From Parcubacteria group bacterium Greene0416_36 (GTDB lineage Bacteria > Patescibacteriota > Patescibacteriia > VMEV01), in NCBI GenBank assembly GCA_007375725.1, contig VMEV01000006.1:6929-70928 (forward strand): DNA of 64,000 nucleotides, given 5' to 3'. Position 1 is the first letter of the stretch. The number at the start of each line of letters is the position of its first letter. The notes under the pieces are model-generated. The model ran no database searches. It was not told the DNA's origin and saw only the letters and a program-made list of their open reading frames with translations. Position numbers and translations under genes: made by a program. Shown piece by piece: positions 11,175 through 62,847 of the stretch.

Positions 11175-11224
11175 CAAAAAGTAACGTAGGGATGCAGCAT
11201 GCTACATCCCTACGTTACTTTTTG
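11175..11224. terminator. Long hairpin with a GTAG-type REP core; likely bidirectional terminator
   Basis: caaaaagtaacgtagggatg..catccctacgttactttttg between convergent genes; same core at 43620-43671. Confidence 0.75.
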
Positions 11225-14395: not shown

Positions 14396-14422
14396 TGTCA
14401 TCCTGAGCCTGTCGAAGGATCT
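14396..14422 (+). repeat. Family D REP-like unit TGTCATCCTGAGCCTGTCGAAGGATCT
   Basis: Hairpin-forming; a 19-nt reverse-complement copy lies at 51356-51374 inside a CDS. Confidence 0.7.
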
Positions 14423-23079: not shown

Positions 23080-23125
23080 TGTCATTGCGAGAATATGCAT
23101 TTTAGCAGAAGCGAAGCAATCTCGT
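23080..23125. repeat. Family B REP-like unit
   Basis: tgtcattgcgag ... gaagcaatctcg. Confidence 0.85.
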
Positions 23126-23228
23126 ATCGAAGGGGAGGATTTTATGTATATTTTCTTGAAATAAAAAAGACCATCGCGATTTTGCTAGGTCCTATAAAAC
23201 CAATGAAAATGAGTTAATGTTCTGTTTT

Positions 23229-23402
23229 TCAATGGTTGGTTGTTTGTTTTTTTCCTTGTTCTTCTTCCTTTTCTTTTATCCTTGTGGCTTCTCTTTTATC
23301 AGCATCTTGTCCTATTATTATAAGTAGTCGTTGGATCTCTTCTAATTCCGTTATAAGAATTATTCCAATCGTTATAATTGCACACAAAATTGCTATTTCC
23401 AT
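23229..23402 (-). CDS. 57-aa orphan membrane-anchored peptide (not in the ORF track)
   Basis: MEIAILCAIITIGIILITELEEIQRLL...KKQTTNH*, with AAAGGA SD upstream. Confidence 0.55.
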   Translation of the reverse strand: MEIAILCAIITIGIILITELEEIQRLLIIIGQDADKREATRIKEKEEEQGKKQTTNH

Positions 23403-23474
23403 TAAATATTCCTTTAAAATATATAAAAATTAGAACCACATTATTACTATCATTTCAGAATATATTTGTCAAAT

Positions 23475-24488
23475 ATGTTGAATCTCAAGATGAATCTCGA
23501 CACTAACATTTTCAATCCCGAAAAACTCAAATGGATCCCGACGCGGAATGGTTTTGGAGAGGGTTTAGTGTTGGCTGGGGAAAAGAATCCGAATGTGGTG
23601 GCGCTAACGGCGGATCTGGAGGAGTCCACTCGTTTTTTGGCATTTCATAAGAAATTTCCGGAGCGGTTTATCGATGTGGGAGTCGCGGAGCAGAATCTGA
23701 TGGGGGTGGCGGCGGGGATGGCCCTCAATGGAAAGATCCCTTTTATCGGTTCTTATGCCACATTTAGTCCTGGGAGAAATTGGGACCAACTTCGAGTCTC
23801 CGTATGCTATAATAATCTGCCCGTCAAAATCGCGGGGGCACATGCGGGTCTTTCCGTAGGTCCCGATGGCGCGACGCATCAGGCGCTCGAAGATATTGCC
23901 ATCACTCGGGTACTTCCCAACATCACGGTGATTGTCCCGTGTGATTATCACGAGGCGCGAAAAGCGGCAATGGCCGCGGCGGAAATGCCAGGCCCGGTTT
24001 ATGTCCGTTTCGCGCGTCCCAATACCGCCGTCCTGACCACGGAGAATACGCCCTTCGAAGTGGGGAAGGCGACGCTTCTGTGGGACAGCGGGGATGACGT
24101 AGCCATTGTAGGCGCGGGTCCTCAATTGTACGAGGCTCTCTTGGCCGCGAAGACTTTGAGCGAGAAAAAGCCGGCCAAGGGTGATAAGAAACTGGGCGTA
24201 AAAGTTCTCAATTTACATACGATTAAACCCATCGACGAAAAAATGCTCTTCGCTCTGGGCAAGAAAACCGGTGCCTTTGTTGTGGTGGAAGAACATCAAA
24301 TCCACGGCGGCGTCTTCGGCGCAGTCGCTGAGACCATGGCTCAAATATGTCCCATCCCCATCGAATCCGTGTCTGTGGCCGACACTTTCGGCGAATCCGG
24401 AGAACATCAAGAACTGCTCGAGAAATATGGACTCTTGGCCGAGGATATTATTGAGGCGGTGGGGAGAGTGATGAAACGAAAAGTCTAA
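23475..24488 (+). CDS. Transketolase, C-terminal subunit
   Basis: GVAEQN, GPDGATHQALED, GPVYVR, TIKPID, EEHQ..GG. Confidence 0.96.
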   Translation: MLNLKMNLDTNIFNPEKLKWIPTRNGFGEGLVLAGEKNPNVVALTADLEESTRFLAFHKKFPERFIDVGVAEQNLMGVAAGMALNGKIPFIGSYATFSPGRNWDQLRVSVCYNNLPVKIAGAHAGLSVGPDGATHQALEDIAITRVLPNITVIVPCDYHEARKAAMAAAEMPGPVYVRFARPNTAVLTTENTPFEVGKATLLWDSGDDVAIVGAGPQLYEALLAAKTLSEKKPAKGDKKLGVKVLNLHTIKPIDEKMLFALGKKTGAFVVVEEHQIHGGVFGAVAETMAQICPIPIESVSVADTFGESGEHQELLEKYGLLAEDIIEAVGRVMKRKV

Positions 24489-24495
24489 AGAGTAT

Positions 24496-24612
24496 TGTCA
24501 TTGCGAAGCCCCGCGTTTTAGCGGGGATGAAGCAATCTCGTGTCGGGTCCCTCTCTCTATTTCAATACGAGATTGCTTCGCCTCCGCTAAGGCGCGGATT
24601 CTCGCAATGACA
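24496..24612. repeat. Family B doublet (inverted pair)
   Basis: tgtcattgcg..gaagcaatctcg ... cgagattgcttc..cgcaatgaca. Confidence 0.9.
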
Positions 24613-25830: not shown

Positions 25831-25833
25831 AAA

Positions 25834-25913
25834 AAATCCCTCCCCAACCCTCCCCTTGACAAGGGAGGGCGTTGCTTCCCCCTTGTCAAAGGGGGACTGA
25901 GGGGGATTTGTTG
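25834..25913. repeat. Family A element
   Basis: Near-identical to 2222-2309. Confidence 0.93.
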
Positions 25914-25937
25914 TTTCATTCCTAATGCCTAATTTCT

Positions 25938-28916: not shown

Positions 28917-28971
28917 AATAAAAAAATGTAGGGGGTCCCGCGTAACGTCCGACCCCCTACATTTTTTTATT
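28917..28971. terminator. Hairpin with GTAGGGG...CCCCTAC REP core and A/T arms
   Basis: aataaaaaaatgtagggggtc..gaccccctacatttttttatt. Confidence 0.7.
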
Positions 28972-34489: not shown

Positions 34490-34574
34490 CAGCAAATCCC
34501 ACCCCAGCCCTCCCTTTGACAAGGGAGGGAGCAGCTTCCCCCTTGTCAAAGGGGGATTGAGGGGGATTTGTTGC
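34490..34574. repeat. Family A element
   Basis: Near-identical to 2222-2309. Confidence 0.93.
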
Positions 34575-34581
34575 CAAATCT

Positions 34582-36204
34582 ATGAAAACAAAATTCATTT
34601 TCATCGTAGGCGGAGTGATGTCGGGGGTGGGGAAGGGCGTGACGGCGGCTTCGATTGGCAGGATTCTCACGAATAAGGGATATTCCGTGAGCGCGGTCAA
34701 AATCGATCCGTACATCAATGTGGACGCGGGGACCATGAACCCGGTCGAACATGGCGAGGTGTTTGTCACCCAAGACGGGGACGAAACCGACCAGGATATT
34801 GGAAACTATGAGCGATTTTTGGGGAAGGATATTCTTTCATCCAACTACATGACCACGGGTCGCGTGTATCTGTCCGTGATTGAGAAGGAGAGGAAACTCG
34901 CCTACCGAGGCAAATGCGTCGAGGTCGTGCCTCACATTCCGGAAGAAGTGATTCTGAGGATCAAAACCGCGGTCAAAGACAGCGGAGCGGAGATCATGAT
35001 CGTCGAAATCGGCGGGACGGTCGGCGAATACCAAAATATTCTCTTCCTCGAAGCCGCCCGCATGATGCATCTCCGCGCCAAAAAAGACGTGCAGTTCATC
35101 TTGGTAAGCTATTTGCCTATTCCGGGCAATCTCGGCGAGATGAAGACCAAGCCCACTCAATACGCCATCCGAACCCTGAACTCCGCCGGAATCCAGCCGG
35201 ATTTTGTGGTCTGCCGCGCGGAAAAAGACCTCGATATTCCGCGTCGCCACAAACTCGAACTTTTCGGCAATATGGCTTCGGGCAGTGTGATTTCTGCTCC
35301 AGATGTCGCCAGTATCTACGATGTCCCGGGGGTTCTGGAAGATCAGCATATGGGCAATAAACTCCTCCGTAATTTTGGCATTCGCCCGCGCAAAAATAAC
35401 TGGACCAGCTGGAAAAAACTCACTCACAATATTCATAATCCCGGCAAACCGGTCCGCATCGCCATGGTCGGGAAATATTTTGGGAGCGGCGATTTTGTCC
35501 TGCCAGATGCCTATATTTCCGTGATCGAATCGGTCAAACATGCAGCATGGAGCCAGAATTTGAAACCGGAATTGGCTTGGATCGATTCGGAAAAGTTTGA
35601 AAACGGCCAAGCACCTAAAGATATTTTGAAAGACTTCGACGGTGTCATTGTGCCTGGAGGATTCGGCAAGAGGGGAGTGGAAGGTAAAATCAAAGCCATC
35701 GAGTATTGCCGTACGCATAAAGTGCCGTATTTCGGCCTTTGCTACGGCATGCAGCTCGCCGCCGTAGAATTCGCCCGACATGTCCTAGGCCATAAAAAAG
35801 CCCATACCACGGAAATCGACCCCTCGACTCCCGACCCCCTCATCTACATCATCCCGAATAAGATATTCGAGGAAACAAAAAAATATGGCGGGACCATGAG
35901 GCTCGGCGCCTATCCCTGCCAAATAGATAAAAATTCTAAGGCCTTCGAGTATTACGGATCGGAAATGATCTCTGAACGACATCGCCACCGATACGAATTC
36001 AACAATGATTACAAAGACGCATTCAATAAAAAGGGATTTAAAACTGTAGGTATTTGTCCCGACAACGGTCTTGTTGAAATACTTGAGCTTGAGGGCCACC
36101 CGTTCTTCATCGGCACCCAATTTCATCCGGAGTTTAAGTCGCGGCCGCTGGATCCACATCCCTTGTTTGTGGGGTTTGTGAGGGCGGCGGCAACAGTCAA
36201 TTAA
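34582..36204 (+). CDS. pyrG: CTP synthase
   Basis: GGVMSGVGKG, KIDPYINVDAGTM, KTKPTQ, GLCYGMQ, ERHRHRYE, QFHPEF. Confidence 0.98.
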   Translation: MKTKFIFIVGGVMSGVGKGVTAASIGRILTNKGYSVSAVKIDPYINVDAGTMNPVEHGEVFVTQDGDETDQDIGNYERFLGKDILSSNYMTTGRVYLSVIEKERKLAYRGKCVEVVPHIPEEVILRIKTAVKDSGAEIMIVEIGGTVGEYQNILFLEAARMMHLRAKKDVQFILVSYLPIPGNLGEMKTKPTQYAIRTLNSAGIQPDFVVCRAEKDLDIPRRHKLELFGNMASGSVISAPDVASIYDVPGVLEDQHMGNKLLRNFGIRPRKNNWTSWKKLTHNIHNPGKPVRIAMVGKYFGSGDFVLPDAYISVIESVKHAAWSQNLKPELAWIDSEKFENGQAPKDILKDFDGVIVPGGFGKRGVEGKIKAIEYCRTHKVPYFGLCYGMQLAAVEFARHVLGHKKAHTTEIDPSTPDPLIYIIPNKIFEETKKYGGTMRLGAYPCQIDKNSKAFEYYGSEMISERHRHRYEFNNDYKDAFNKKGFKTVGICPDNGLVEILELEGHPFFIGTQFHPEFKSRPLDPHPLFVGFVRAAATVN

Positions 36205-40198: not shown

Positions 40199-40285
40199 AA
40201 CAAATCCCACCCCAACCCTCCCTTTGACAAGGGAGGGAGCAGCAGCCTCCCCCTTGTCAAAGGGGGACTGAGGGGGATTTGTTGT
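40199..40285. repeat. Family A element between rplJ and rplL
   Basis: Near-identical to the other copies. Confidence 0.93.
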
Positions 40286-40325
40286 TATCATTCAACATCA
40301 CTTATAAATTTTTAATTTAAATTTT

Positions 40326-42183: not shown

Positions 42184-43365
42184 ATGAAATCAAAATCTCA
42201 AATTCACTCCCCCCTTATCGCCTGGTTCGCCCTCCACCAGCGCGTTTTGCCGTGGCGCGAAATCCGCACTCCTTACCGCTCTTGGATTTCCGAAATCATG
42301 CTTCAACAGACGCAGGTGGACACGGTGGTGCCTTATTTTTTGCGTTGGATGGAGAAGTATCCAGATGTGGAAACATTGTCGAGGGCTTCGGAAGAGGAAA
42401 TAGTGAAGATGTGGGAGGGGCTGGGATATTATTCGCGCGCGAAAAATATTCTAAGAAGCGCCAAAATGATTATGGAACGATGGGGCGGACGGTTTCCGGA
42501 AAATTATGACGATATATTGTCCCTGCCCGGAATAGGGGAGTATACCGCGGGCGCGATTCTGTCGATTGCCATGAAAAAGCCCTATCCGATTGTGGACGGC
42601 AATGTCATGCGCGTGTATTCACGTCTTCTCCGAGACGACACGGACATTTCTTCGACGGCTGGCAAAAAGCATTTCTGGAAAATTGCCGAAAAATACCTGG
42701 ATCGCGAAAAACCCCATTTGTACAATGAGGCTCTTATGGAATTAGGCGCCTTGGTCTGCACTCCGGCCAATCCCAAATGCGCCGTGTGTCCGTGGCACGA
42801 TATTTGCGTAGCTCGCCGTGACAAAAAACAGTCCCTGTATCCCGTCAAAAATAAAAAAAACGACTGTCAAAAACTGAATAAAATTGCGTGGATTATTAGA
42901 AAAGAGGATTTAAAAAAAGGATCCATGATTTGGATTCAAAAAACGCCTATGGGTCAGGCGAGGGGAGGGCTGTGGGAATTCCCGACGGAGGATGTAACGG
43001 GTCAGAGCACGGTTCGTAACCCCGATGCGCCTCGGGGCGGGTTTAAAACCCGCCCCTACCGAGGAGATGCCACATACCTCTGCCGTGTCCAGCATTCCTA
43101 CACGAAATATCGGGTGACCCTGGACGCGTATTGCGTTGAAATTCCAATGGATGGGTCTGATGGTGTAGCGGCGCAGCGCGCTGTGCCCCTACAGGCTTGC
43201 ATAGATAAACAAAACGGCAAATGGGTCGTTTTGGATGAGCTAAAAAACTACACCTTTTCTTCTGGCGCCCGAAAAGTGCTAAAGTACTTACAGAGAATAA
43301 ATCCCTCCCCAACCCTCCCTTTGACAAGGGAGGGAGCTGTTTCCCCCTTGTCAAAGGGGGACTAA
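42184..43365 (+). CDS. mutY: A/G-specific adenine glycosylase carrying REP-derived insertions
   Basis: WISEIMLQQTQV, WEGLGYYSRA, LPGIGEYTA, VDGNVMRV, C-x6-C-x2-C-x5-C, GLWEFP. Confidence 0.96.
   Translation: MKSKSQIHSPLIAWFALHQRVLPWREIRTPYRSWISEIMLQQTQVDTVVPYFLRWMEKYPDVETLSRASEEEIVKMWEGLGYYSRAKNILRSAKMIMERWGGRFPENYDDILSLPGIGEYTAGAILSIAMKKPYPIVDGNVMRVYSRLLRDDTDISSTAGKKHFWKIAEKYLDREKPHLYNEALMELGALVCTPANPKCAVCPWHDICVARRDKKQSLYPVKNKKNDCQKLNKIAWIIRKEDLKKGSMIWIQKTPMGQARGGLWEFPTEDVTGQSTVRNPDAPRGGFKTRPYRGDATYLCRVQHSYTKYRVTLDAYCVEIPMDGSDGVAAQRAVPLQACIDKQNGKWVVLDELKNYTFSSGARKVLKYLQRINPSPTLPLTREGAVSPLSKGD
43034..43059. repeat. Family E REP in frame inside mutY (RGGFKTRPY)
   Basis: ggggcgggtttaaaacccgcccctac. 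Confidence 0.85.
43164..43193. repeat. Family E REP in frame inside mutY (VAAQRAVPLQ)
   Basis: tgtagcggcgcagcgcgctgtgcccctaca, a 2-mismatch copy of 49803-49830. Confidence 0.85.
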
Positions 43366-43379
43366 GGGGGATTTGTTGT
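43299..43379. repeat. Family A element encoding the mutY C-terminal tail and stop
   Basis: NPSPTLPLTREGAVSPLSKGD* is translated from the repeat. Confidence 0.92.
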
Positions 43380-43407
43380 TTCATTTTTAATTCTTAATTA
43401 TTTATCT

Positions 43408-43619: not shown

Positions 43620-43671
43620 CTCAAAATAAATATAGGGATGTAGCATGCTACATCCCTATATTTATTTTGAG
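43620..43671. terminator. 52-bp perfect palindrome with REP core
   Basis: ctcaaaataaatatagggatgtagca|tgctacatccctatatttattttgag. Confidence 0.75.
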
Positions 43672-45184: not shown

Positions 45185-45303
45185 AGCAACAAACCCCATC
45201 CCAGCCTTCCCCTTAACAAGGGAAGGAGTAACAGCCATACCAATGAAATAGAGGGGCTGTTCCCTCCCTTGTTAAGGGGAGGGTTAAGGAGGGGTTTGTT
45301 GCT
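45185..45303. repeat. Family A element (TTAAC variant, longer spacer)
   Basis: agcaacaaacccc..ccttaacaaggg ... cccttgttaagggg..ggggtttgttgct. Confidence 0.88.
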
Positions 45304-45389: not shown

Positions 45390-46330
45390 ATGAAGGTCGC
45401 TTTGGTCCATGATCACCTGGCTCAGGACGGGGGATCAGAACAAGTGCTGAAAGTTTTTCACGAGCTTTTCCCTGAAGCTCCGACCTTTGTTTTGGTTCAT
45501 GACCGGGCCAAGGCTTCGCCGCAATTCCTCAAAAAAGATATCCGTACTTCTTTCATTCAAGATATCCCCATGGGACTCCGAAAATACCAGTGGTTTTTGC
45601 CGCTCATGCCGCACGCAGTGGAGCGCTACGACCTCTCGGGATTTGATATCGTCCTGTCATCATCCGCAATATGAGCGCCCAGAGAGTTGACCATTTCATC
45701 GCCAATTCAGATACCGTGCGAGGCCGTATTGAAAAATATTATGATCGGGACAGTCATGTCATTTATCCGCCGGTGCAAACCGGAATTTTTCAAATTACGC
45801 CCAAAACAGACGATTATTTTTTGGCGGGAGGAAGACTGGTTTATTACAAACGCATTGATTTGGTAGTCAAAGCTTTCAATACTACTGGAATTAAGCTCAA
45901 AATTTTCGGCGATGGGCCGGAAAGGGAAAAATTAGAGAAGATGGCTAGAGGAAATATTGAATTTGTTGGGAAAGTCGATGATAGTGTCAAAGCTCAATTA
46001 TTCTCTGGCGCAAAGGCCTATATTCACCCTCAGGAAGAAGATTTTGGTATTTCTGCGGTTGAATCCATGGCCGCCGGCCGGCCGGTATTGGCTCTTGGTC
46101 AAGGCGGGGCCCTTGAAAGCGTGATCCCGGGCGTAACCGGTGAACTGTTTTATCACCAAGGCTGGGAAGAAATCGCCGATCTGTCCGTCCGATTTGACAC
46201 CCAAAAGTATAATCCGTACCGTATCCGTGAACACGCTGAAAAGTTTTCGGTAGAGAGGTTTAAGAGGGAGATAATGGAATTTGTGAATAATAAGTATCAA
46301 GAATTTAACAAAAAATATGACTCTCAGTGA
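45390..46330 (+). pseudogene. GT4 glycosyltransferase split by an internal deletion/frameshift
   Basis: N-part MKVALVHDHL..GGSEQVL ends at SSSAI*; C-part VDHFIANS..EDFGISAVESMAAGRPV starts in another frame at an ATGA overlap. Confidence 0.75.
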
Positions 46331-49459: not shown

Positions 49460-51541
49460 TTACAAATCCCAAAACTCAAACACCCACACCTTCCCGCCGT
49501 CGATTGGATAAACACTATCCGCGACGGCTTTTGTATTTTGGAGGATACTCTCGAAGTGGGTCCAGTAGGGATGGAGGACGAAATAGGCTTGGTGGACGCC
49601 AGCGATGGCAGCAGCCTGTTTCATAGTCTCGCGCGAGGGCTGCTCGTAAACCATGTCGAGATATTTCTGGTAAAGAGGGGCGCCAGTGGGAATGGAGTAG
49701 AAGAAATTATCACCATAATATTTGCGGAAACCAAATTCACGGAGCGCGGCCGCGCCGAGATTTTGATTGCCGAGGACGATGTATTCTTGGCCATCACTAG
49801 ATGTAGGGGCACAGCGCGCTGTGCCCCTACATCGCGACAATTCTTCAATCTTATGAACCGCCTTGATATCCGACAGAGACACGCTGTACCCGCGTCCGGT
49901 TTCGAAAATATGATGGCGGGGGTAGGAGAAATAGAAAGAGTTAGCGAGGAGAAATACGAGAAAAAGACTTAAAAATAAATGAAACACCCGATTTTTGAGG
50001 CTTTTCTGATAAATGAAATAAAGTCCCGCTAAGAAGAAGGGGAACAGGAAATAGAAGCTCAATTGAATAAGGCGATTGGCATAATCAAGCCGCTCGTATT
50101 CGATGAGATTGCTAAAATTAATGAAGGAGGCGAGAAGGAAGGCGTTGGAGAGGAGGATGAGGAAGGAGGTGAGGAAGAGCGAACGGACCTTTTCAAGTAA
50201 GGGCGTATTGCAATACGCCCTTACGGATAGAGCTACCCCCAATACAACAACGGCCCCATAAATCCAATACACCCCCACCTTCCAAAAATACGCCAAGTCA
50301 TAAAACAGACTGAAATTTTGATTCCATGCCGACCAGTTGAGAAAAGAAAATAGGCTGGAAATAGGGGTAAATCCCTGCCAAGAAAAATTCTCAAAAGGCG
50401 CGCCGGAGAGAATGCCTTGTAGTAAAAATACTGCGGGAACAGCAAAGCAAAGCAGAATTATGGCTGATATTTGAATGAATCGAGGAAAATACTGCTTGAG
50501 TAAAATAAGTATCGGCAAAATAAGCGCGGGAATGCCGACCAGAGGGTGGATGGCGAGAGTGGCGAGGGCGAAAATCCACAGAAGTAAGGGCGTATGGCCA
50601 TACGCCCTTACGAGTAAAGCAGGCTCTATCTTCTGCAAATAAATCCATGCCTCGCACAAAACAAACACCAAAAAGACAGTCGCCAAATTATAAGGCGTGG
50701 GCATGATCCAGTAGGAGAAGGGGAGGATGAGGAGGGTGAAAGGTAATAACAACCATGTCGTGCCTTGTAGGGGCACAGCGCGCTGTGCCCCTAGACCTAG
50801 GGGCGTCGATACAAGCGCCCTCCACACAAAATACGGCACTGCAAAAATACACATCGCCAAGAGTATCTTTTCGATCCAAAAAGGAGATATCGACAAAATT
50901 TTTGCAAAAAACACGACCAAACTATACTGACCGATATAATAAAAAGGTTTGGGCGTAATCGTCCCATGATCCAGAATATATTGCTCGGTCGCTTGGTGAA
51001 TAAACGGATCAAAACCAAATCCGACCGGATAAATAATGAGAGCCGCGGAAACGGAAAAAAGAAAATGGCACGCAATCGCGAAGAGAGCCAAACGCGCCTG
51101 TACACCTTTCTTGATCAAGAGCATCAAAATCCCCGTACAGGCGAAATAGAGGGCGAAGAATTCGGAGCCGACTTGCTCCCAGGGAGAACGGATACTATCC
51201 CAGGTTCGGTGGAGATAGAGATAGTAGGTGAGACAGGCGAGGAGGGTGGCTACCCAAAACCAAGAGCATCCCCGAGGTAAGGGCGTATTGCAATACGCCC
51301 TTACCGACATGGGTAGGGCTGGTGGAAGTAAGGGTACAGCCGCGGCTTGGTGGAGCGACAGGCTCAGGATGACAAGGGTGTGGGATATTAAGGACAATAT
51401 AACAACAATAGCGAGCATCGGCGTGCTCAAATCAACAATATAAAACAGCGCCGTGCCCCAAATAGCGACTAGGGCGAAAAAAAGCATGAGGCTTCTCATC
51501 AGGCCAAATTTGCTGTATGTTTTTAATAAAGTTTTAATCAT
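49460..51541 (-). CDS. Polytopic membrane protein (possible GT-C fold) with many in-frame REP insertions
   Basis: Many TM segments; GFGFDPFIHQA, YERLDY, YFSYPR, YSIPTG; palindrome-derived peptides in loops. Confidence 0.8.
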   Translation of the reverse strand: MIKTLLKTYSKFGLMRSLMLFFALVAIWGTALFYIVDLSTPMLAIVVILSLISHTLVILSLSLHQAAAVPLLPPALPMSVRAYCNTPLPRGCSWFWVATLLACLTYYLYLHRTWDSIRSPWEQVGSEFFALYFACTGILMLLIKKGVQARLALFAIACHFLFSVSAALIIYPVGFGFDPFIHQATEQYILDHGTITPKPFYYIGQYSLVVFFAKILSISPFWIEKILLAMCIFAVPYFVWRALVSTPLGLGAQRAVPLQGTTWLLLPFTLLILPFSYWIMPTPYNLATVFLVFVLCEAWIYLQKIEPALLVRAYGHTPLLLWIFALATLAIHPLVGIPALILPILILLKQYFPRFIQISAIILLCFAVPAVFLLQGILSGAPFENFSWQGFTPISSLFSFLNWSAWNQNFSLFYDLAYFWKVGVYWIYGAVVVLGVALSVRAYCNTPLLEKVRSLFLTSFLILLSNAFLLASFINFSNLIEYERLDYANRLIQLSFYFLFPFFLAGLYFIYQKSLKNRVFHLFLSLFLVFLLANSFYFSYPRHHIFETGRGYSVSLSDIKAVHKIEELSRCRGTARCAPTSSDGQEYIVLGNQNLGAAALREFGFRKYYGDNFFYSIPTGAPLYQKYLDMVYEQPSRETMKQAAAIAGVHQAYFVLHPYWTHFESILQNTKAVADSVYPIDGGKVWVFEFWDL
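49800..49833. repeat. 34-bp perfect palindrome (GTAG REP) in CDS
   Basis: gatgtaggggcacagcg|cgctgtgcccctacatc encodes CRGTARCAPT. Confidence 0.92.
50197..50224. repeat. 28-bp perfect palindrome in CDS
   Basis: gtaagggcgtattg|caatacgcccttac encodes VRAYCNTPL. Confidence 0.92.
50584..50611. repeat. 28-bp perfect palindrome in CDS
   Basis: gtaagggcgtatgg|ccatacgcccttac encodes VRAYGHTPL. Confidence 0.92.
50767..50825. repeat. REP palindrome plus adjacent degenerate copy in CDS
   Basis: gtaggggcacagcgcgctgtgcccctag (LGAQRAVPLQ) followed by ctaggggcgtcgatacaagcgccctccac. Confidence 0.88.
51276..51374. repeat. Stack of REP units in CDS (perfect 30-bp palindrome, degenerate GTAAGGG unit, Family D fragment)
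   Basis: ggtaagggcgtattg|caatacgcccttacc 51276-51305; gtaagggtacagccgcggct from 51328; cgacaggctcaggatgaca 51356-51374. Confidence 0.88.
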
Positions 51542-53269
51542 ATGCAAGAGTCAATGCAAGCATTTATAGCTAAATTTCGTAATTTTTTAAATAGGCCGAA
51601 GGTACGAGAATACGCTCCTTTCTTTATTTTAGCGTGTTTTCTGTTTCCGCTATACTCTTACCTCTATTGGACCACGGGTAATCTATTCAATTCTCCGGAT
51701 GAGACGGCCGCTTCTTTCTTTTCACGACTTTATATTGAAACCGGGACTTTTTCATACACCGAACCTTTTAATTCACTGCTTCCCGGGTGGATCCACCCAC
51801 GAAGCATGGTGATTGAAAATGGAACCGTTCTGCCTATCTCTTTTCTGGGGATTTTATTGTTTTTAGGAACTCTTGGCGGAATAGTAGGACCGTGGAGCAT
51901 TCCCTATATCATCCCGCTCCTGTCGGCGATTATTCCTCTATTTTTCTACGGATTTGCCAAACATATTTTCTCATCAAAAACTGCTTTTTGGAGTGCGATT
52001 TTATTGGCCATACATCCGGCTATTATCTACTATAACGAAAGGAATTTTCTGCCAAATGCCTTATTTCTCGATATTTTCATTTTATTCCTCTTCTTTTTTT
52101 TCGCCTGGATATCATGGAAACAGAAGCAAAAATGGATTTTCGCGGTATCGAGTTCGTCTCTCTTGGCACTGCTTATTTCTATTCGACTCTTTGAGGCCAT
52201 ATGGCTGGGGCCGCTGGTACTGATCTTATGCATTCTGTTTTGGAAGAAGAATTCGATGAAAGAATGGCTGATGTGGGGAATATTATGCTCGCTCTTCATG
52301 ACACCTCTCTTGGCGGGTCAATGGATCACATACGGATCTCCCTTTAAAACAGGATATGGCATCACTGGGGATATTATTCCGCCGCCGGAACCATCCGAGG
52401 TAATTGGAGAGCCTGCGATACCCCCCGAACCACCGATTCCAGAACCCCCCGCATGCAAAAGCGTCGAGTGCCTGCCCGGATTCAACAAGGTCTTTCCTTT
52501 TGGCCTAGACCGATATAATATCACTCATAATTTCCAGGCTATTGGCGTGAACCTCTTGGGCATAATTTTCCTGCCTTGTCTTGTTGGGCTTCTTTTATTT
52601 TTCTGGAAAGAAAAGGCCTTTCCTCAAAGAGTTTACAGTGTTTTGGCGCTAGGCATTGCTTTGTATCTCATTGCGGTTTATGGAAGCTGGGGAGTCCGGG
52701 ATAATATCAATCCAAATATTACGACTATTGGACTATCCCATGTGCGCTATTGGCTGCCGATCTGGGCTTTCTTCCTGCCTTTTAGCGCGTACCTTTATCT
52801 CAAAATTACCCGGGGAAACAAAATAGCCATGAGCATAATTATTCTAGGACTATCCATTTACTCAGGAAAAGTCGTCTTGGGATCTTCTGAAGACAGCATT
52901 CATCATGTGTTAGCCAGCATCCGCCACTATCAGCAAGTCCAGAATGATTTTTCCGCTTTGGCTCCCGAGGACTCCATCATCATTTCCGAACGCAGCGACA
53001 AAATTTTCTTTCCCAAGTATCGCGTGATTTCAGTTCCCGATAAGAATTACGTGCATGTGTTTTCTCATATCCAAAAACTTTTAGAACAAGCTCCGATTTA
53101 TTTTTATACCCAAATGCCCGATTCCGATATCCAATACCTCCAGTCCCGGCATTTAGAATTTCAGGGGCTTTATTTTAAAGAAGTAAAGAAGTGGGAGGAT
53201 GGGTTTAGGATGCACGTCATCCGCGATCAACAAATCCCCCTTAATCCCCCTTTGACAAGGGGGACATAG
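51542..53269 (+). CDS. GT-C (ArnT/PMT-like) membrane glycosyltransferase
   Basis: NSPDE motif after TM1, many TMs, YGSPFKTGY, HVRYWLP; Pro-rich loop. Confidence 0.75.
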   Translation: MQESMQAFIAKFRNFLNRPKVREYAPFFILACFLFPLYSYLYWTTGNLFNSPDETAASFFSRLYIETGTFSYTEPFNSLLPGWIHPRSMVIENGTVLPISFLGILLFLGTLGGIVGPWSIPYIIPLLSAIIPLFFYGFAKHIFSSKTAFWSAILLAIHPAIIYYNERNFLPNALFLDIFILFLFFFFAWISWKQKQKWIFAVSSSSLLALLISIRLFEAIWLGPLVLILCILFWKKNSMKEWLMWGILCSLFMTPLLAGQWITYGSPFKTGYGITGDIIPPPEPSEVIGEPAIPPEPPIPEPPACKSVECLPGFNKVFPFGLDRYNITHNFQAIGVNLLGIIFLPCLVGLLLFFWKEKAFPQRVYSVLALGIALYLIAVYGSWGVRDNINPNITTIGLSHVRYWLPIWAFFLPFSAYLYLKITRGNKIAMSIIILGLSIYSGKVVLGSSEDSIHHVLASIRHYQQVQNDFSALAPEDSIIISERSDKIFFPKYRVISVPDKNYVHVFSHIQKLLEQAPIYFYTQMPDSDIQYLQSRHLEFQGLYFKEVKKWEDGFRMHVIRDQQIPLNPPLTRGT

Positions 53270-53311
53270 CGCCCTCCCTTGTCAAAGGGAGGGTTGGGGA
53301 GGGATTTGTTG
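53228..53311. repeat. Family A element (reverse orientation) supplying the C-terminus QQIPLNPPLTRGT*
   Basis: caacaaatcccccttaatccccctttgacaagggg ... ccctcccttgtcaaagggagggttggggagggatttgttg. Confidence 0.92.
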
Positions 53312-53376
53312 TTTAGGATTCTTTCAAATTCGATATAACAGCCCAAATAGAAATAAACAACAAACAGCAACCTAAT

Positions 53377-59829: not shown

Positions 59830-62800
59830 ATGATTGTAAATCAATCATTTTCAATAAAGCAGAGTATCGTCCTCCCTGCTTTATTTTTATTTGCGACTTT
59901 ATTGCCCCAGACTGTACTTGGAGCAGTTCCAAGTACACTGACCGCTACCAATGTAGAACCCGCTAGCTTGCTCGTTGGTTCTACCAATACCGTAACTGTT
60001 AATTTCACAACAGTTGGAGGCATCAACAAAAAAGATGCTATCAAAATTACATTCGGAGCTGGATTTAATATAGCCGCAGCTTCCGGAGGTGCTTGTGCTA
60101 CCTTCGATGACGCTGGCACGGTTGTGACATCCGTCGCTGGCCAAGTTGTCACCCTTACAAGACAGAACGATGGGTCCATTCAGACCGCGGCCGCCGAAAC
60201 TTGTACCATTAACAATATCGTGAACCCGGTGACTATCGGTTCTACAGGAACCTACTCTATTCAAATCGTCAATCCCAGCAATAATGTCGTGCAAGAAGAA
60301 GATCTTGCTGTCACGGCCGATACCATAGTAGCCGACACCGTAGCTCCAACCATCACAATCACGGCTCCCACGAAAACATCCGGCGCGGTGGTCACAGACA
60401 CGACGATTTTAGTGACTGATAATGCGGCGGTCACGGCAGCCAATGTGATTATCGATCCCTCATCGACCGCTACGGCAACCCTCTCGTGCATCCAAACTGA
60501 TTCAAAAACAGTAAACTGCACAACCACAATTTCTTCTTCCGGTGATCTGGTCATCAAAGCGACTGATAGTTCCACAAATATATCCACATCTACGTCGGCT
60601 GGATACACCATCACGCTTCCGGACACAACCGTTCCAATTGTAACTATCACCGCCCCTACAAAAATCTCAACTGCAGCTATTACCGATACGACCATTTTAA
60701 TTACTGATAATAAAGCTATCACTGCGACCAATATCTTAGTGGACGGGACTTCGACTGCTACAGCCACCCTCAACTGCACCCAGACGAATGCTACTACGGT
60801 TAACTGTACAACTAACATTTCCACTTCTGGAAATTTGGTTATCAAAGCCACAGACGATGCTGCAAATATTACAACTGCCACGGAAACCGGTTATTCCATC
60901 AATCTTCCTGATACAACTGCTCCAACAATCGCGATTACAGCTCCTACAAAAAATGATGTCGCTATTATTACTAATACAACTATTGCCGTTACTGACAACA
61001 AAGCTATCACAGCTGCGAATGTTGTAGTAGATGGAACCTCAACGGCTACAGCAACCATCACCTGCACTCAAACGAATGCAACTACGGTAAACTGCACCTC
61101 TACGGTCTTCACCTCAGGGAATTTAGTTATCAAAGCAACCGATGATGCAGCCAATGTAACCACCAAAACCGAGGCGGGTTATGTTATCACCATTCCAGTT
61201 GTCGACACCACTGCCCCCACAGTTGCGATCACCGCACCTACGAAGACATCGGCCGCGACTATTACCGATACAACCATTGCAGTTACCGATAATACAGCCA
61301 TCACGGCTACCAGCGTCGTCGTGGATCCCACTTCGACAGCTACAGCTACCCTCAACTGCGTCCAAACCAATGCGACAACAGTGAATTGCACCAGCAGTAT
61401 CTCTACTTCGGGCAATTTAGTGATCAAAGCAGTAGATAATGCAGCGAACGCTACAACAACTGCTGAAAACAATTATACGATCAATTTACCCGATACAACG
61501 GCCCCAGTCGCGACTATTACAGCCCCAACAAAAATAGCGGCAGCCGCGATAACCGATACCACTATTTCTATTACAGACAATAAAGGAATTACAGCCATCA
61601 ATATAACAGTTGATGTTTCCTCTACAGCTACAGCCGTTCTCAACTGTGTACAAACCAATGCCACTAAGGTTGACTGTACTACTAATATTTCTACTTCTGG
61701 AGACTTGATCATCAAATCCGCGGATGATGCTGGCAACTCCAACCTGACAACTGAAGCAGGCTATACGGTCAATCTGCCTGATACTACGGCTCCAGTTATA
61801 GTATTCAATGCCCCAACCAAGGCTTCGACTTCCAACATTACCAATACCACCATCACTATTACAGATAATAAAGCAATTACAGCAGCTAATGTCATTATTG
61901 ACCCATCCTCCACGGCCACAGCCACGATCGCCTGTACTCAAACCAATGCCACTACAGTGGACTGCACCAGCAATATCACCACCTCCGGCAATTTGACGAT
62001 CAAGGCTACGGATAACGCAGTTAATGTCAGCACGGTGAGTGAAAATGGTTATTCAATTACTCCTCCACCCATTCAGATACAAAACCAGACCTTTGGGGGT
62101 TCCCAGATTTGCCGAACTGGTGAAGGAAGCATTATAATTAATGGAAATGCTATCAGTTCCTCTTCTCGGGAAGTCATGATCTCAGTTATATTGAGTGCTA
62201 ATAATACGCCAGTTGAACTGATCGCGAGCGAATCCGCCACATTTGAAGGAGCCAATTATCGGCCTTATTCCGGACAATTCTCCTTCATCCTCAGCCCGGC
62301 CTCAGGAGAGAAAAAAGTCTATGCCATTGTCCGAACCACCTGCTTTGAAACCCCGGTTCTGTTCGATACGATCAACTTAGAAGCAGGCGCGACTGAAACG
62401 ATCTTGCCCCCCACCCCGCCAACCGAAAATACAAATATCCCCCCCGCTCCAACGGAAAACAATACCAATGTCACTCCAACCCCTACTCCCACTCCCACTG
62501 AAAATAATGCCAATCTGAATCCTAATTCCAATGCAGGATCCAATGGATCTGGAACGGAATCTGGAACAGGTGCAGGCGCTGGAATCGACAATATCCCCGG
62601 ATCAGGTACTTTGCCGGAAAATAGCGTGGTAGATAATACCCAAGCCGACGGCGAAATCTTAGGTATCAAGCTCTACGCCCCCGGACAATTGATTCGAGCG
62701 CTCGTGGACAGAAAAGTCTATATTATCAATAAGAATGGAACCAAACACCATATCTTGAATCTCAAAGAACTCGCAAAATCTTATCGGGGCAAAACAATAT

Positions 62801-62847
62801 TTAATACAACGATTGCGATGATAAAATTGTATGCCAATGAAAAATAA
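59830..62847 (+). CDS. Large Thr-rich cell-surface protein with six Ig-like repeats
   Basis: Signal peptide; 6 x DT..P...TAPTK units of about 96-98 aa; Pro/Thr/Asn linker; GEILG..Y..G.LIR C-terminal domain. Confidence 0.88.
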   Translation: MIVNQSFSIKQSIVLPALFLFATLLPQTVLGAVPSTLTATNVEPASLLVGSTNTVTVNFTTVGGINKKDAIKITFGAGFNIAAASGGACATFDDAGTVVTSVAGQVVTLTRQNDGSIQTAAAETCTINNIVNPVTIGSTGTYSIQIVNPSNNVVQEEDLAVTADTIVADTVAPTITITAPTKTSGAVVTDTTILVTDNAAVTAANVIIDPSSTATATLSCIQTDSKTVNCTTTISSSGDLVIKATDSSTNISTSTSAGYTITLPDTTVPIVTITAPTKISTAAITDTTILITDNKAITATNILVDGTSTATATLNCTQTNATTVNCTTNISTSGNLVIKATDDAANITTATETGYSINLPDTTAPTIAITAPTKNDVAIITNTTIAVTDNKAITAANVVVDGTSTATATITCTQTNATTVNCTSTVFTSGNLVIKATDDAANVTTKTEAGYVITIPVVDTTAPTVAITAPTKTSAATITDTTIAVTDNTAITATSVVVDPTSTATATLNCVQTNATTVNCTSSISTSGNLVIKAVDNAANATTTAENNYTINLPDTTAPVATITAPTKIAAAAITDTTISITDNKGITAINITVDVSSTATAVLNCVQTNATKVDCTTNISTSGDLIIKSADDAGNSNLTTEAGYTVNLPDTTAPVIVFNAPTKASTSNITNTTITITDNKAITAANVIIDPSSTATATIACTQTNATTVDCTSNITTSGNLTIKATDNAVNVSTVSENGYSITPPPIQIQNQTFGGSQICRTGEGSIIINGNAISSSSREVMISVILSANNTPVELIASESATFEGANYRPYSGQFSFILSPASGEKKVYAIVRTTCFETPVLFDTINLEAGATETILPPTPPTENTNIPPAPTENNTNVTPTPTPTPTENNANLNPNSNAGSNGSGTESGTGAGAGIDNIPGSGTLPENSVVDNTQADGEILGIKLYAPGQLIRALVDRKVYIINKNGTKHHILNLKELAKSYRGKTIFNTTIAMIKLYANEK
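60334..62060 (+). repeat. Six diverged intragenic tandem repeats (about 290 nt each)
   Basis: Each unit has TDN.AITA, STATAT..C.QT....V.CT, SG.L.IKA.D. Confidence 0.9.

Follow-up and report, generated by a model that had tools for sequence, protein, structure and literature searches.

Five in-frame REP palindromes in one membrane-protein gene of a Patescibacteria genome: an unusually dense case of intragenic repeat insertion

In this report, we examine a membrane-protein gene of Parcubacteria group bacterium Greene0416_36 that carries five in-frame copies of a short repetitive extragenic palindromic (REP) sequence. The gene lies in a 64,000-nucleotide stretch of DNA (the window), which corresponds to C17:6929-70928 of the 1.03-Mb assembly of this bacterium (GCA_007375725.1, here G000; 25 contigs, completeness rated at 100%). 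We favor the explanation that the host gene is a passive, tolerant sink, in which REP hairpins, likely spread by a REP-associated tyrosine transposase (RAYT), were kept in loops that tolerate changes in length, and we give this explanation a probability of about 0.6. The gene is an unusually dense case of a phenomenon that has already been described, and it presents neither a new kind of element nor a new function.

The host open reading frame (ORF) runs on the minus strand at 49460-51547, with 695 open codons from a TTG, or 693 if the ATG at 51541 is the start; the version held in the protein database (P0001) has 679 aa. Judging from the open frame, the homologs, and a neighbor profile match, it encodes a polytopic membrane protein with ~15 predicted helices followed by a C-terminal soluble domain. 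The original prediction had placed five palindromes in this one uninterrupted frame, and all five are present as 28-bp GTAR..YTAC units (given here without strand), four perfect and one with a single mismatch, every one of them in frame. Site 1 (51277-51304) is a perfect REP of the double-foot type, translated as VRAYCNTPL at aa 82-90; site 4 (50197-50224) is likewise perfect and supplies the same peptide at aa 442-450, and both are identical to a copy lodged within a RAYT gene on contig C12. Site 2 (50767-50794), recognized by the genome repeat scan and by the length of its loop, holds the single mismatch and reads LGAQRAVPL at aa 252-260. Site 3 (50584-50611), retrieved by palindrome search, is a perfect variant in which two changes relative to the common type compensate each other, and it reads VRAYGHTPL at aa 313-321. 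Site 5 (49803-49830; 34 bp when the paired flanks at 49800-49833 are included) is perfect and reads CRGTARCAPT at aa 573-582, in the C-terminal soluble domain.

Further units accompany these five. A half-site remnant at 51328-51343 (AAVPL, ~aa 69-74) is a probable REP, scoring 15.0 bits against the matrix with a chance expectation of 0.034 per gene of this size. A second repeat family, Family D, is represented by a 19-nt fragment on the minus strand at 51356-51374, which reads VILSLS where a predicted helix ends; it is identical to the first 19 nt of five other genome copies, one of them at window position 14396. The degenerate unit beside site 2 (50797-50826) aligns in part to the family consensus and folds at -11 kcal/mol, and we grade it as weak because 0.19 such units are expected by chance and because loop 2 exceeds its homologs by one REP only. 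The Family D piece and the five intergenic relatives of the repeats named by the original prediction are real, and of its two degenerate units, the one at 51328 stands as probable and the one at 50797 is doubtful. The tally for the gene is five firm units, two likely, and one doubtful. A candidate half-site at 49565 proved to be a conserved SIPT motif instead of a repeat.

Set against homologous proteins, the repeats are lineage-specific loop insertions, as had been anticipated. The homolog set comprises 229 matches, of which 120 were listed and 119 aligned; the best are 33-41% identical, and those that carry a name come from Patescibacteria. None of the 119 aligned homologs contains the REP peptides. 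Between conserved anchors, the host protein exceeds the homolog median by 5, 9, 9, 6, and 13 aa at sites 1-5, respectively, compared with differences of 0, -5, -1, and -2 residues over four control intervals. The loop at site 1 is variable, with 15 of 118 homologs equally long, and equal length is reached by 3/119 homologs at site 2, 2/119 at site 3, and 3/119 at site 4. Coding units of 28, 29, and 30 bp were all found, which, together with the unequal net gains, rules out a fixed, frame-keeping insert size and makes it likely that flanking bases were variably gained or lost at each event. Some peptides in the database homologs look repeat-like at the protein level.

The concentration of repeats in this gene stands out against the whole genome. 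A scan found 102 GTAR..YTAC copies, 29 in coding DNA and 73 outside called coding sequence, giving densities of 3.5 and 36.5 per 100 kb of coding and non-coding DNA, respectively, where coding DNA is defined by our own gene caller (878 genes, 81% coding). Two of the 29 sit in RAYT genes. Among the 27 that remain, five fall in the host gene against 0.07 expected from its length, and the probability that any gene would gather at least five was 2e-5 (100,000 simulations). Within this genome, the host gene is a statistical hotspot, in agreement with the original proposal. Counts per gene are 5, 3, 2, 2, and 2, with thirteen further genes holding one each; when the host gene is set aside, clustering by gene persists, with four genes holding at least two among 22 copies (P 2.5e-4). 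The 29 coding copies are distributed 16/13/0 over the three frames, so the stop-giving frame indeed goes unused, as claimed; as separate evidence this is circular, because open ORFs entail an unused stop frame.

The phenomenon extends beyond the host gene, since a MutY-like gene at 42247-43365 on the plus strand, identified by the genome scan and Pfam, holds two further in-frame degenerate REPs (43031-43059 and 43165-43192). By their Pfam names, in-frame hosts elsewhere include ArgRS, MurC, a second Mur ligase, UvrC, UvrD, MutY, Tgt, and RmlD, to which two O-antigen ligases and GT2/GT4 enzymes are added; six of 20 REP-host proteins scanned had no Pfam match. The second densest host is the RmlD gene at C19:21122-22180 (L029), with three in-frame REPs of three subtypes and net gains of ~14, 15, and 12 residues. 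A related pattern occurs in 10/300 genomes of the class with 1-7 matches each, compared with 34 in G000, which makes G000 unusually REP-rich. The exact 28-mer was found in 18 stretches of other genomes from several phyla, and our own profile detected a Y1 transposase within 1.5 kb in none of the 18.

The repeats are of the RAYT-linked kind, and the mobilizing enzyme, as the prediction had held, is encoded outside the window. An intact RAYT gene of ~200 aa with the motifs NHVH and YIKNNP, detected with a profile built from relatives, is located at C12:86916-87518. The site-1/4 palindrome occurs inside this gene, in frame between HuH and Y, and a second copy follows 41 bp downstream. A Pfam Y1_Tnp search of the genome gave no match, a false negative overturned by our profile and by a match to NF047646 at 64.8 bits (cut-off 80). 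By its motifs, length, and REP-derived insert, the C12 enzyme is likely a RAYT of subclass 2.4, and three relatives (L054, L061, and L067) show a REP inside or beside a tnpA-REP gene in the same arrangement. A second RAYT is present in two pieces, C16:57397-57638 and C19:46295-46636, which lie at contig ends and each adjoin one repeated end sequence; the two halves were likely split by an insertion sequence, and an in-frame REP of another type lies in the C19 half. In the host gene, the feet of the hairpins follow GT[AG]G..C[TC]AC at site 5 and, with one mismatch, at site 2, and the variant GTAA..TTAC at sites 1, 3, and 4. Ahead of the in-frame REP in the intact RAYT, C12:87199-87258 (L021) contains two degenerate 30-bp units with REP half-sites.

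The host protein is likely GT-C-type glycosyltransferase-like, to judge from remote sequence relationships. The protein itself has no sequence match in Pfam, NCBIfam, or the PDB, and a PDB search with the family profile returned none. DUF6541 is matched by 3/62 family members, and hhalign aligns the family with its PMT_2-like neighbor family at a probability of 93% (E 3e-7, 316 columns); among language-model neighbors of the host protein, PMT_2, DUF6541, and DUF2206 account for 17%, 11%, and 10% of members, each a minority share. The neighboring gene at 51542-53269 on the plus strand, oriented divergently from the host gene, encodes a PMT_2-like (GT-C) membrane protein (PF13231 E 0.0015, below cut-off) and is a distant relative of the host gene by profile match; no GTAR palindrome was found in it. 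A PMT_2-like gene is close to the host-family gene in 65/80 relative loci (L127-L206), and homologs run against most of their neighbors in 74/79.

The predicted topology was drawn from alignment hydropathy and K/R counts, with one helix, in the hairpin at aa 322-349, added by eye. It places the loops of sites 1, 2, and 4 in the cytoplasm (K+R 5.7, 2.3, and 3.5, respectively), and that of site 3 inside by alternation (K+R 1.2), and it assigns site 5 to the C-terminal domain on the outer side. No insert interrupts the conserved outer motifs GFDPFIH, EYER, and YPR, and all 13 invariant columns are kept. Measured on the class-wide set, the host protein retains 57/62 conserved residues, a level as low in 24/79 homologs and similar to that of other genes in G000.

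The family occurs in 173/301 genomes of the class, and its relatives show how readily these loops change. We sampled 80 loci of ~16 kb from the upper part of the family ranking, 79 of them with a full homolog. Among the inserts of at least 6 aa in these homologs, 44/68 fall in the five insert loops of the host gene, which make up 13% of the core, although kin share inserts and the events are not all independent. In another family of the class, G153 holds an independent in-frame 29-bp double-foot REP in the site-3 loop, and other homologs contain pieces of other palindromic families, seen as DNA. A double-foot match in G076 was set aside as chance, as a loose double-foot pattern scored lower in G153, G188, and G076 than its reversed control did, and a library of intergenic 14-mers from the 80 loci yielded three words only and was dropped. 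The host family gains 12.9 insertions per 10,000 aa, against 9.4, 10.0, and 11.0 in neighboring glycan families and 0-3.8 in seven other neighbor families. Repeat-motif events number 8 in 160 kb of the host family and 25 in 847 kb of other genes at the loci (binomial p 0.14); codon shuffling predicts 1.8 and 13.2, respectively, and two of the eight family events look like chance. Hairpin-like inserts occur at 1.1 per 10,000 aa in the host family and at 0.9, 2.2, and 1.7 in three neighbor families. Since the insertion rate is matched by three neighboring glycan families and the motif density is not significantly above that of other genes at the loci, the family is tolerant and not clearly targeted. 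In individual relatives, the G106 homolog (L156) has seven inserts, none folding as a hairpin, and G100 (L161) has hairpin inserts in both the host-family gene and its PMT_2-like neighbor; in-frame repeat inserts look common among glycan genes of the class.

Under the tolerant-sink explanation, the subclass-2.4 RAYT encoded on C12 would spread 28-bp double-foot REPs by nicking single-stranded DNA, and the REP DNA would be joined or copied in while a varying number of flanking bases was gained or lost. Frame-shifting events, and those that bring an in-frame TAG or TAA, would be purged, and insertions in tolerant loops would drift to fixation. The coexistence of perfect copies with remnants suggests several rounds of insertion, and the REP peptides likely have no function in themselves. 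We infer the step from RAYT to insertion from co-occurrence in the genome and from the in vitro behavior of RAYTs of other subclasses (PMC8266576).

Several observations weigh against this explanation. Tolerance alone may be insufficient for the 70-fold excess of copies: a tolerance weight of 5-10-fold, roughly estimated from family indel data, predicts fewer than one copy. At site 5, the spacing is 33 residues here and 19-21 in 119/119 database homologs; a different insert occurs there in one of the 79 class homologs. A profile search of the assembly found no RAYT bearing the site-2/5 REP type. None of the 40 relatives belongs to the same family as G000, and the searches yielded no close relative with an empty site. 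On the database set, the host protein keeps 61/69 conserved residues, as few as in 7/119 homologs, a hint of weaker constraint that is not repeated class-wide. Finally, RAYT-driven spread in cells is described as unproven, model systems included (PMC8266576).

A self-reinforcing hotspot is a less likely alternative. According to this idea, a first REP recruits the RAYT, which cuts nearby single-stranded DNA and seeds further copies; the head-on position of the gene near the likely terminus would expose more single-stranded DNA, and loop tolerance would only filter the outcome. The persistence of clustering without the host gene speaks for it, as do the clustered copies themselves, which are separated by 117-510 bp and in most cases belong to different subtypes; because the subtypes mostly differ, the clusters are not local duplications. 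In E. coli, TnpA-REP cuts chiefly close to a REP in vitro (PMC8266576), although this biochemistry stems from other RAYT subclasses. The host gene is alone among 18 REP-bearing genes in lying on the skew-inferred lagging strand, yet no other lagging-strand gene has a copy even though that strand accounts for 19% of coding DNA. It also lies 5-7 kb from the sole terminus-like skew peak, and 74/79 homologs are oriented against their neighbors, but apart from the host gene the 35 kb around the peak hold three copies, approximately the genome average. Non-coding copies are unclustered (10/67 within 1 kb, where 11.8 are expected), and the distance from coding to non-coding copies is no shorter than random (p 0.68). 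Kilobase-scale local hopping, lagging-strand preference, and terminus enrichment were rejected as general drivers, none being seen in the distribution of copies. The peak in question, at window ~56700 (C17:63605), has no terminus-like counterpart elsewhere in the cumulative GC skew of the assembly, which shows an origin-like trough at C15:68634; no dif-like site was found in a consensus search.

A bolder form of the same thought is that REPs beget REPs: a resident double-foot hairpin would make its own gene a preferred RAYT target, most of all in a head-on gene near the terminus, and the envelope-glycan family would be a recurrent trap in which unrelated repeats rebuild five loops. We regard this as doubtful. 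If it were true, the gene would preserve a natural history of how REPs spread and would lend itself readily to tests of the mechanism.

It is unlikely that the gene is simply decaying, as a dispensable or untranslated ORF that gathers inserts under relaxed selection. The lower residue retention on the database set fits such decay, as does the failure to find the family in 128/301 class genomes, and the multi-copy hosts RmlD, Tgt, and MutY may themselves be dispensable. Against this, the frame of 695 codons is still open despite at least five inserts of non-triplet length, no invariant column has been lost, and class-wide retention is ordinary.

Even less probable is an adaptive role, in which the inserts were selected for varying an envelope glycosyltransferase (its substrate, or phage and host recognition) or for pacing translation through mRNA hairpins. 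Many in-frame hosts are envelope or glycan genes, homologs from other families have gained repeat-like inserts at corresponding loops, the hairpins fold strongly in the mRNA (-18 to -28 kcal/mol), and the two changes at site 3 compensate each other. The site-3 core variant may, however, have arrived ready-made because G022 carries it as well, and neither the motif density of the family nor its rate of hairpin-like inserts clearly sets it apart from the genes around it. The suggestion of a diversifying envelope protein also fares poorly on topology, with four of the five sites (1-4) predicted to be cytoplasmic, and about a quarter of all copies are in frame in ordinary genes. The check for presence/absence polymorphism returned no alternative allele: the gene is contained in four sequencing runs, all groundwater metagenomes from a single study and three of them possibly the source of the assembly, and their Logan contigs, which drop rare variants, list no variant letters within it.

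That the repeats were mis-joined into the gene during assembly is highly improbable: although Logan contigs terminate, unbridged, inside the palindromes at sites 1, 4, and 5 and the window is 172 letters short at 45670, sites 2 and 3 lie within one 1106-nt contig in 4/4 runs, adjoining contigs overlap within palindromes at even depth, none of the 15 joints listed in the four runs skips a single palindrome, and the collinearity of the protein with its homologs on both flanks of all five sites argues against a mis-join. The 172 letters, at window 45670/45671, are present in contigs of 3/4 runs and have no counterpart in the window; the glycosyltransferase ORFs at 45390-45674 and 45671-46330 are likely one gene divided by this assembly gap.

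Other repeats in the window and genome deserve mention. Non-coding REP copies lie within longer perfect palindromes with site-specific arms (mean 7.9 bp, up to 18; for example, window 11175-11224, 28917-28970, and 43620-43670), and the arms of coding copies have a mean of 2.9 bp, some up to 10, with 0-3 bp for the five in the host gene. The long-armed non-coding copies look like two-way terminators, and template switching may be the origin of their arms. The most frequent repeat of the genome is a larger nested palindromic family (top 16-mer count 103) with a few matches inside coding DNA, present in the window at 2224-2331, 25831-25936, 34491-34596, 40201-40307, 43296-43401, 45190-45303, and 53267-53313. 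Another inverted-repeat family, which starts GTCATTGCGA, occurs at window 23080-24610 and at ~33 genome sites, often as facing pairs ~100 bp apart. Within a 1005-aa ORF at 59830-62847, a unit of 288 bp (96 residues) occurs six times in diverged form at 60318-62063.

Among known systems, the closest is the double-foot REP, defined as a hairpin with a 5' GT[AG]G and a 3' C[TC]AC (PMC6006769, Quentin et al. 2018), and its enzyme, TnpA-REP of subclass 2.4 (RAYT group 4), which is characterized by NH[IFV]H, WQ, and YIxNNP motifs, a median length of 194, and a variable HuH-Y insert (PMC6006769). The system in G000 shares the foot at each hairpin end, the ~200-aa RAYT with NHVH and YIxNNP, and the in-frame REP between HuH and Y (PMC6006769). 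It differs in that three of the five host-gene copies are GTAA..TTAC instead of GT[AG]G..C[TC]AC and in that the C12 RAYT has WH where the published table has WQ (PMC6006769). In-frame double-foot REPs are already in print (PMC6006769), but the available text of that work treats inserts in RAYT genes, only cites inserts in other genes, and leaves Patescibacteria unnamed.

The likeness to two further groups concerns the host and the manner of insertion. With the GT-C glycosyltransferases (PMT_2, DUF6541, DUF2206), the host protein shares a large number of helices, an acidic motif within a large outer loop, a C-terminal soluble domain, a position in a glycan gene cluster, and the profile match to its PMT_2-like neighbor; unlike them, it has no direct Pfam, NCBIfam, or PDB match. 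Cyanobacterial SDR, as described by Elhai et al. in 2008, are reportedly mobile repeats of very small size that invade sequence already in place. Precise insertion into HIP1 sites is reported for SDR5 (PMC4390886), whereas no fixed target or insert size was seen among the REPs of G000.

Coding insertion had been thought chiefly a matter of Rickettsia palindromic elements, a view that is not supported, as in-frame GTAG and CGTC REPs were reported from many species in 2013 (PMC3733652). The Rickettsia elements do share the retention of palindromic repeats in frame within functional genes of a bacterium that has a small genome and likely depends on a host, but RPE-1 is far longer, RPE-4 and RPE-6 are CGTC-tagged, and the available text links no HUH enzyme to them (PMC3733652). 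The intragenic GTAG and CGTC REPs come nearer: single REPs yield in-frame peptides of 7-10 residues, the hosts include UvrC, UvrD, tRNA synthetases, and tRNA-modifying enzymes, and the authors had already proposed neutral loop inserts (PMC3733652). Here, by contrast, the host is a polytopic membrane protein encoded in a genome of 1 Mb. Our literature search, with subscription papers beyond reach, found neither intragenic REPs in Patescibacteria nor a five-site gene, and Fig. S6 and S10 of PMC6006769 may show more.

The novelty lies in how many sites a single gene holds, in the host group, and in repeat inserts that recur at corresponding loops across the class. With REP spread termed poorly understood (PMC8266576), a streamlined genome that has a likely enzyme at hand and relatives with independent loop inserts make a good teaching and test case for the remodeling of loops by tiny repeats, and the case warns that REP peptides confuse protein alignments of Patescibacteria. 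In the 2013 catalogue, an ORF has at most two separate sites (PMC3733652); the host gene, with five in-frame REP sites and a second-family piece in its 695 codons, exceeds every ORF there.

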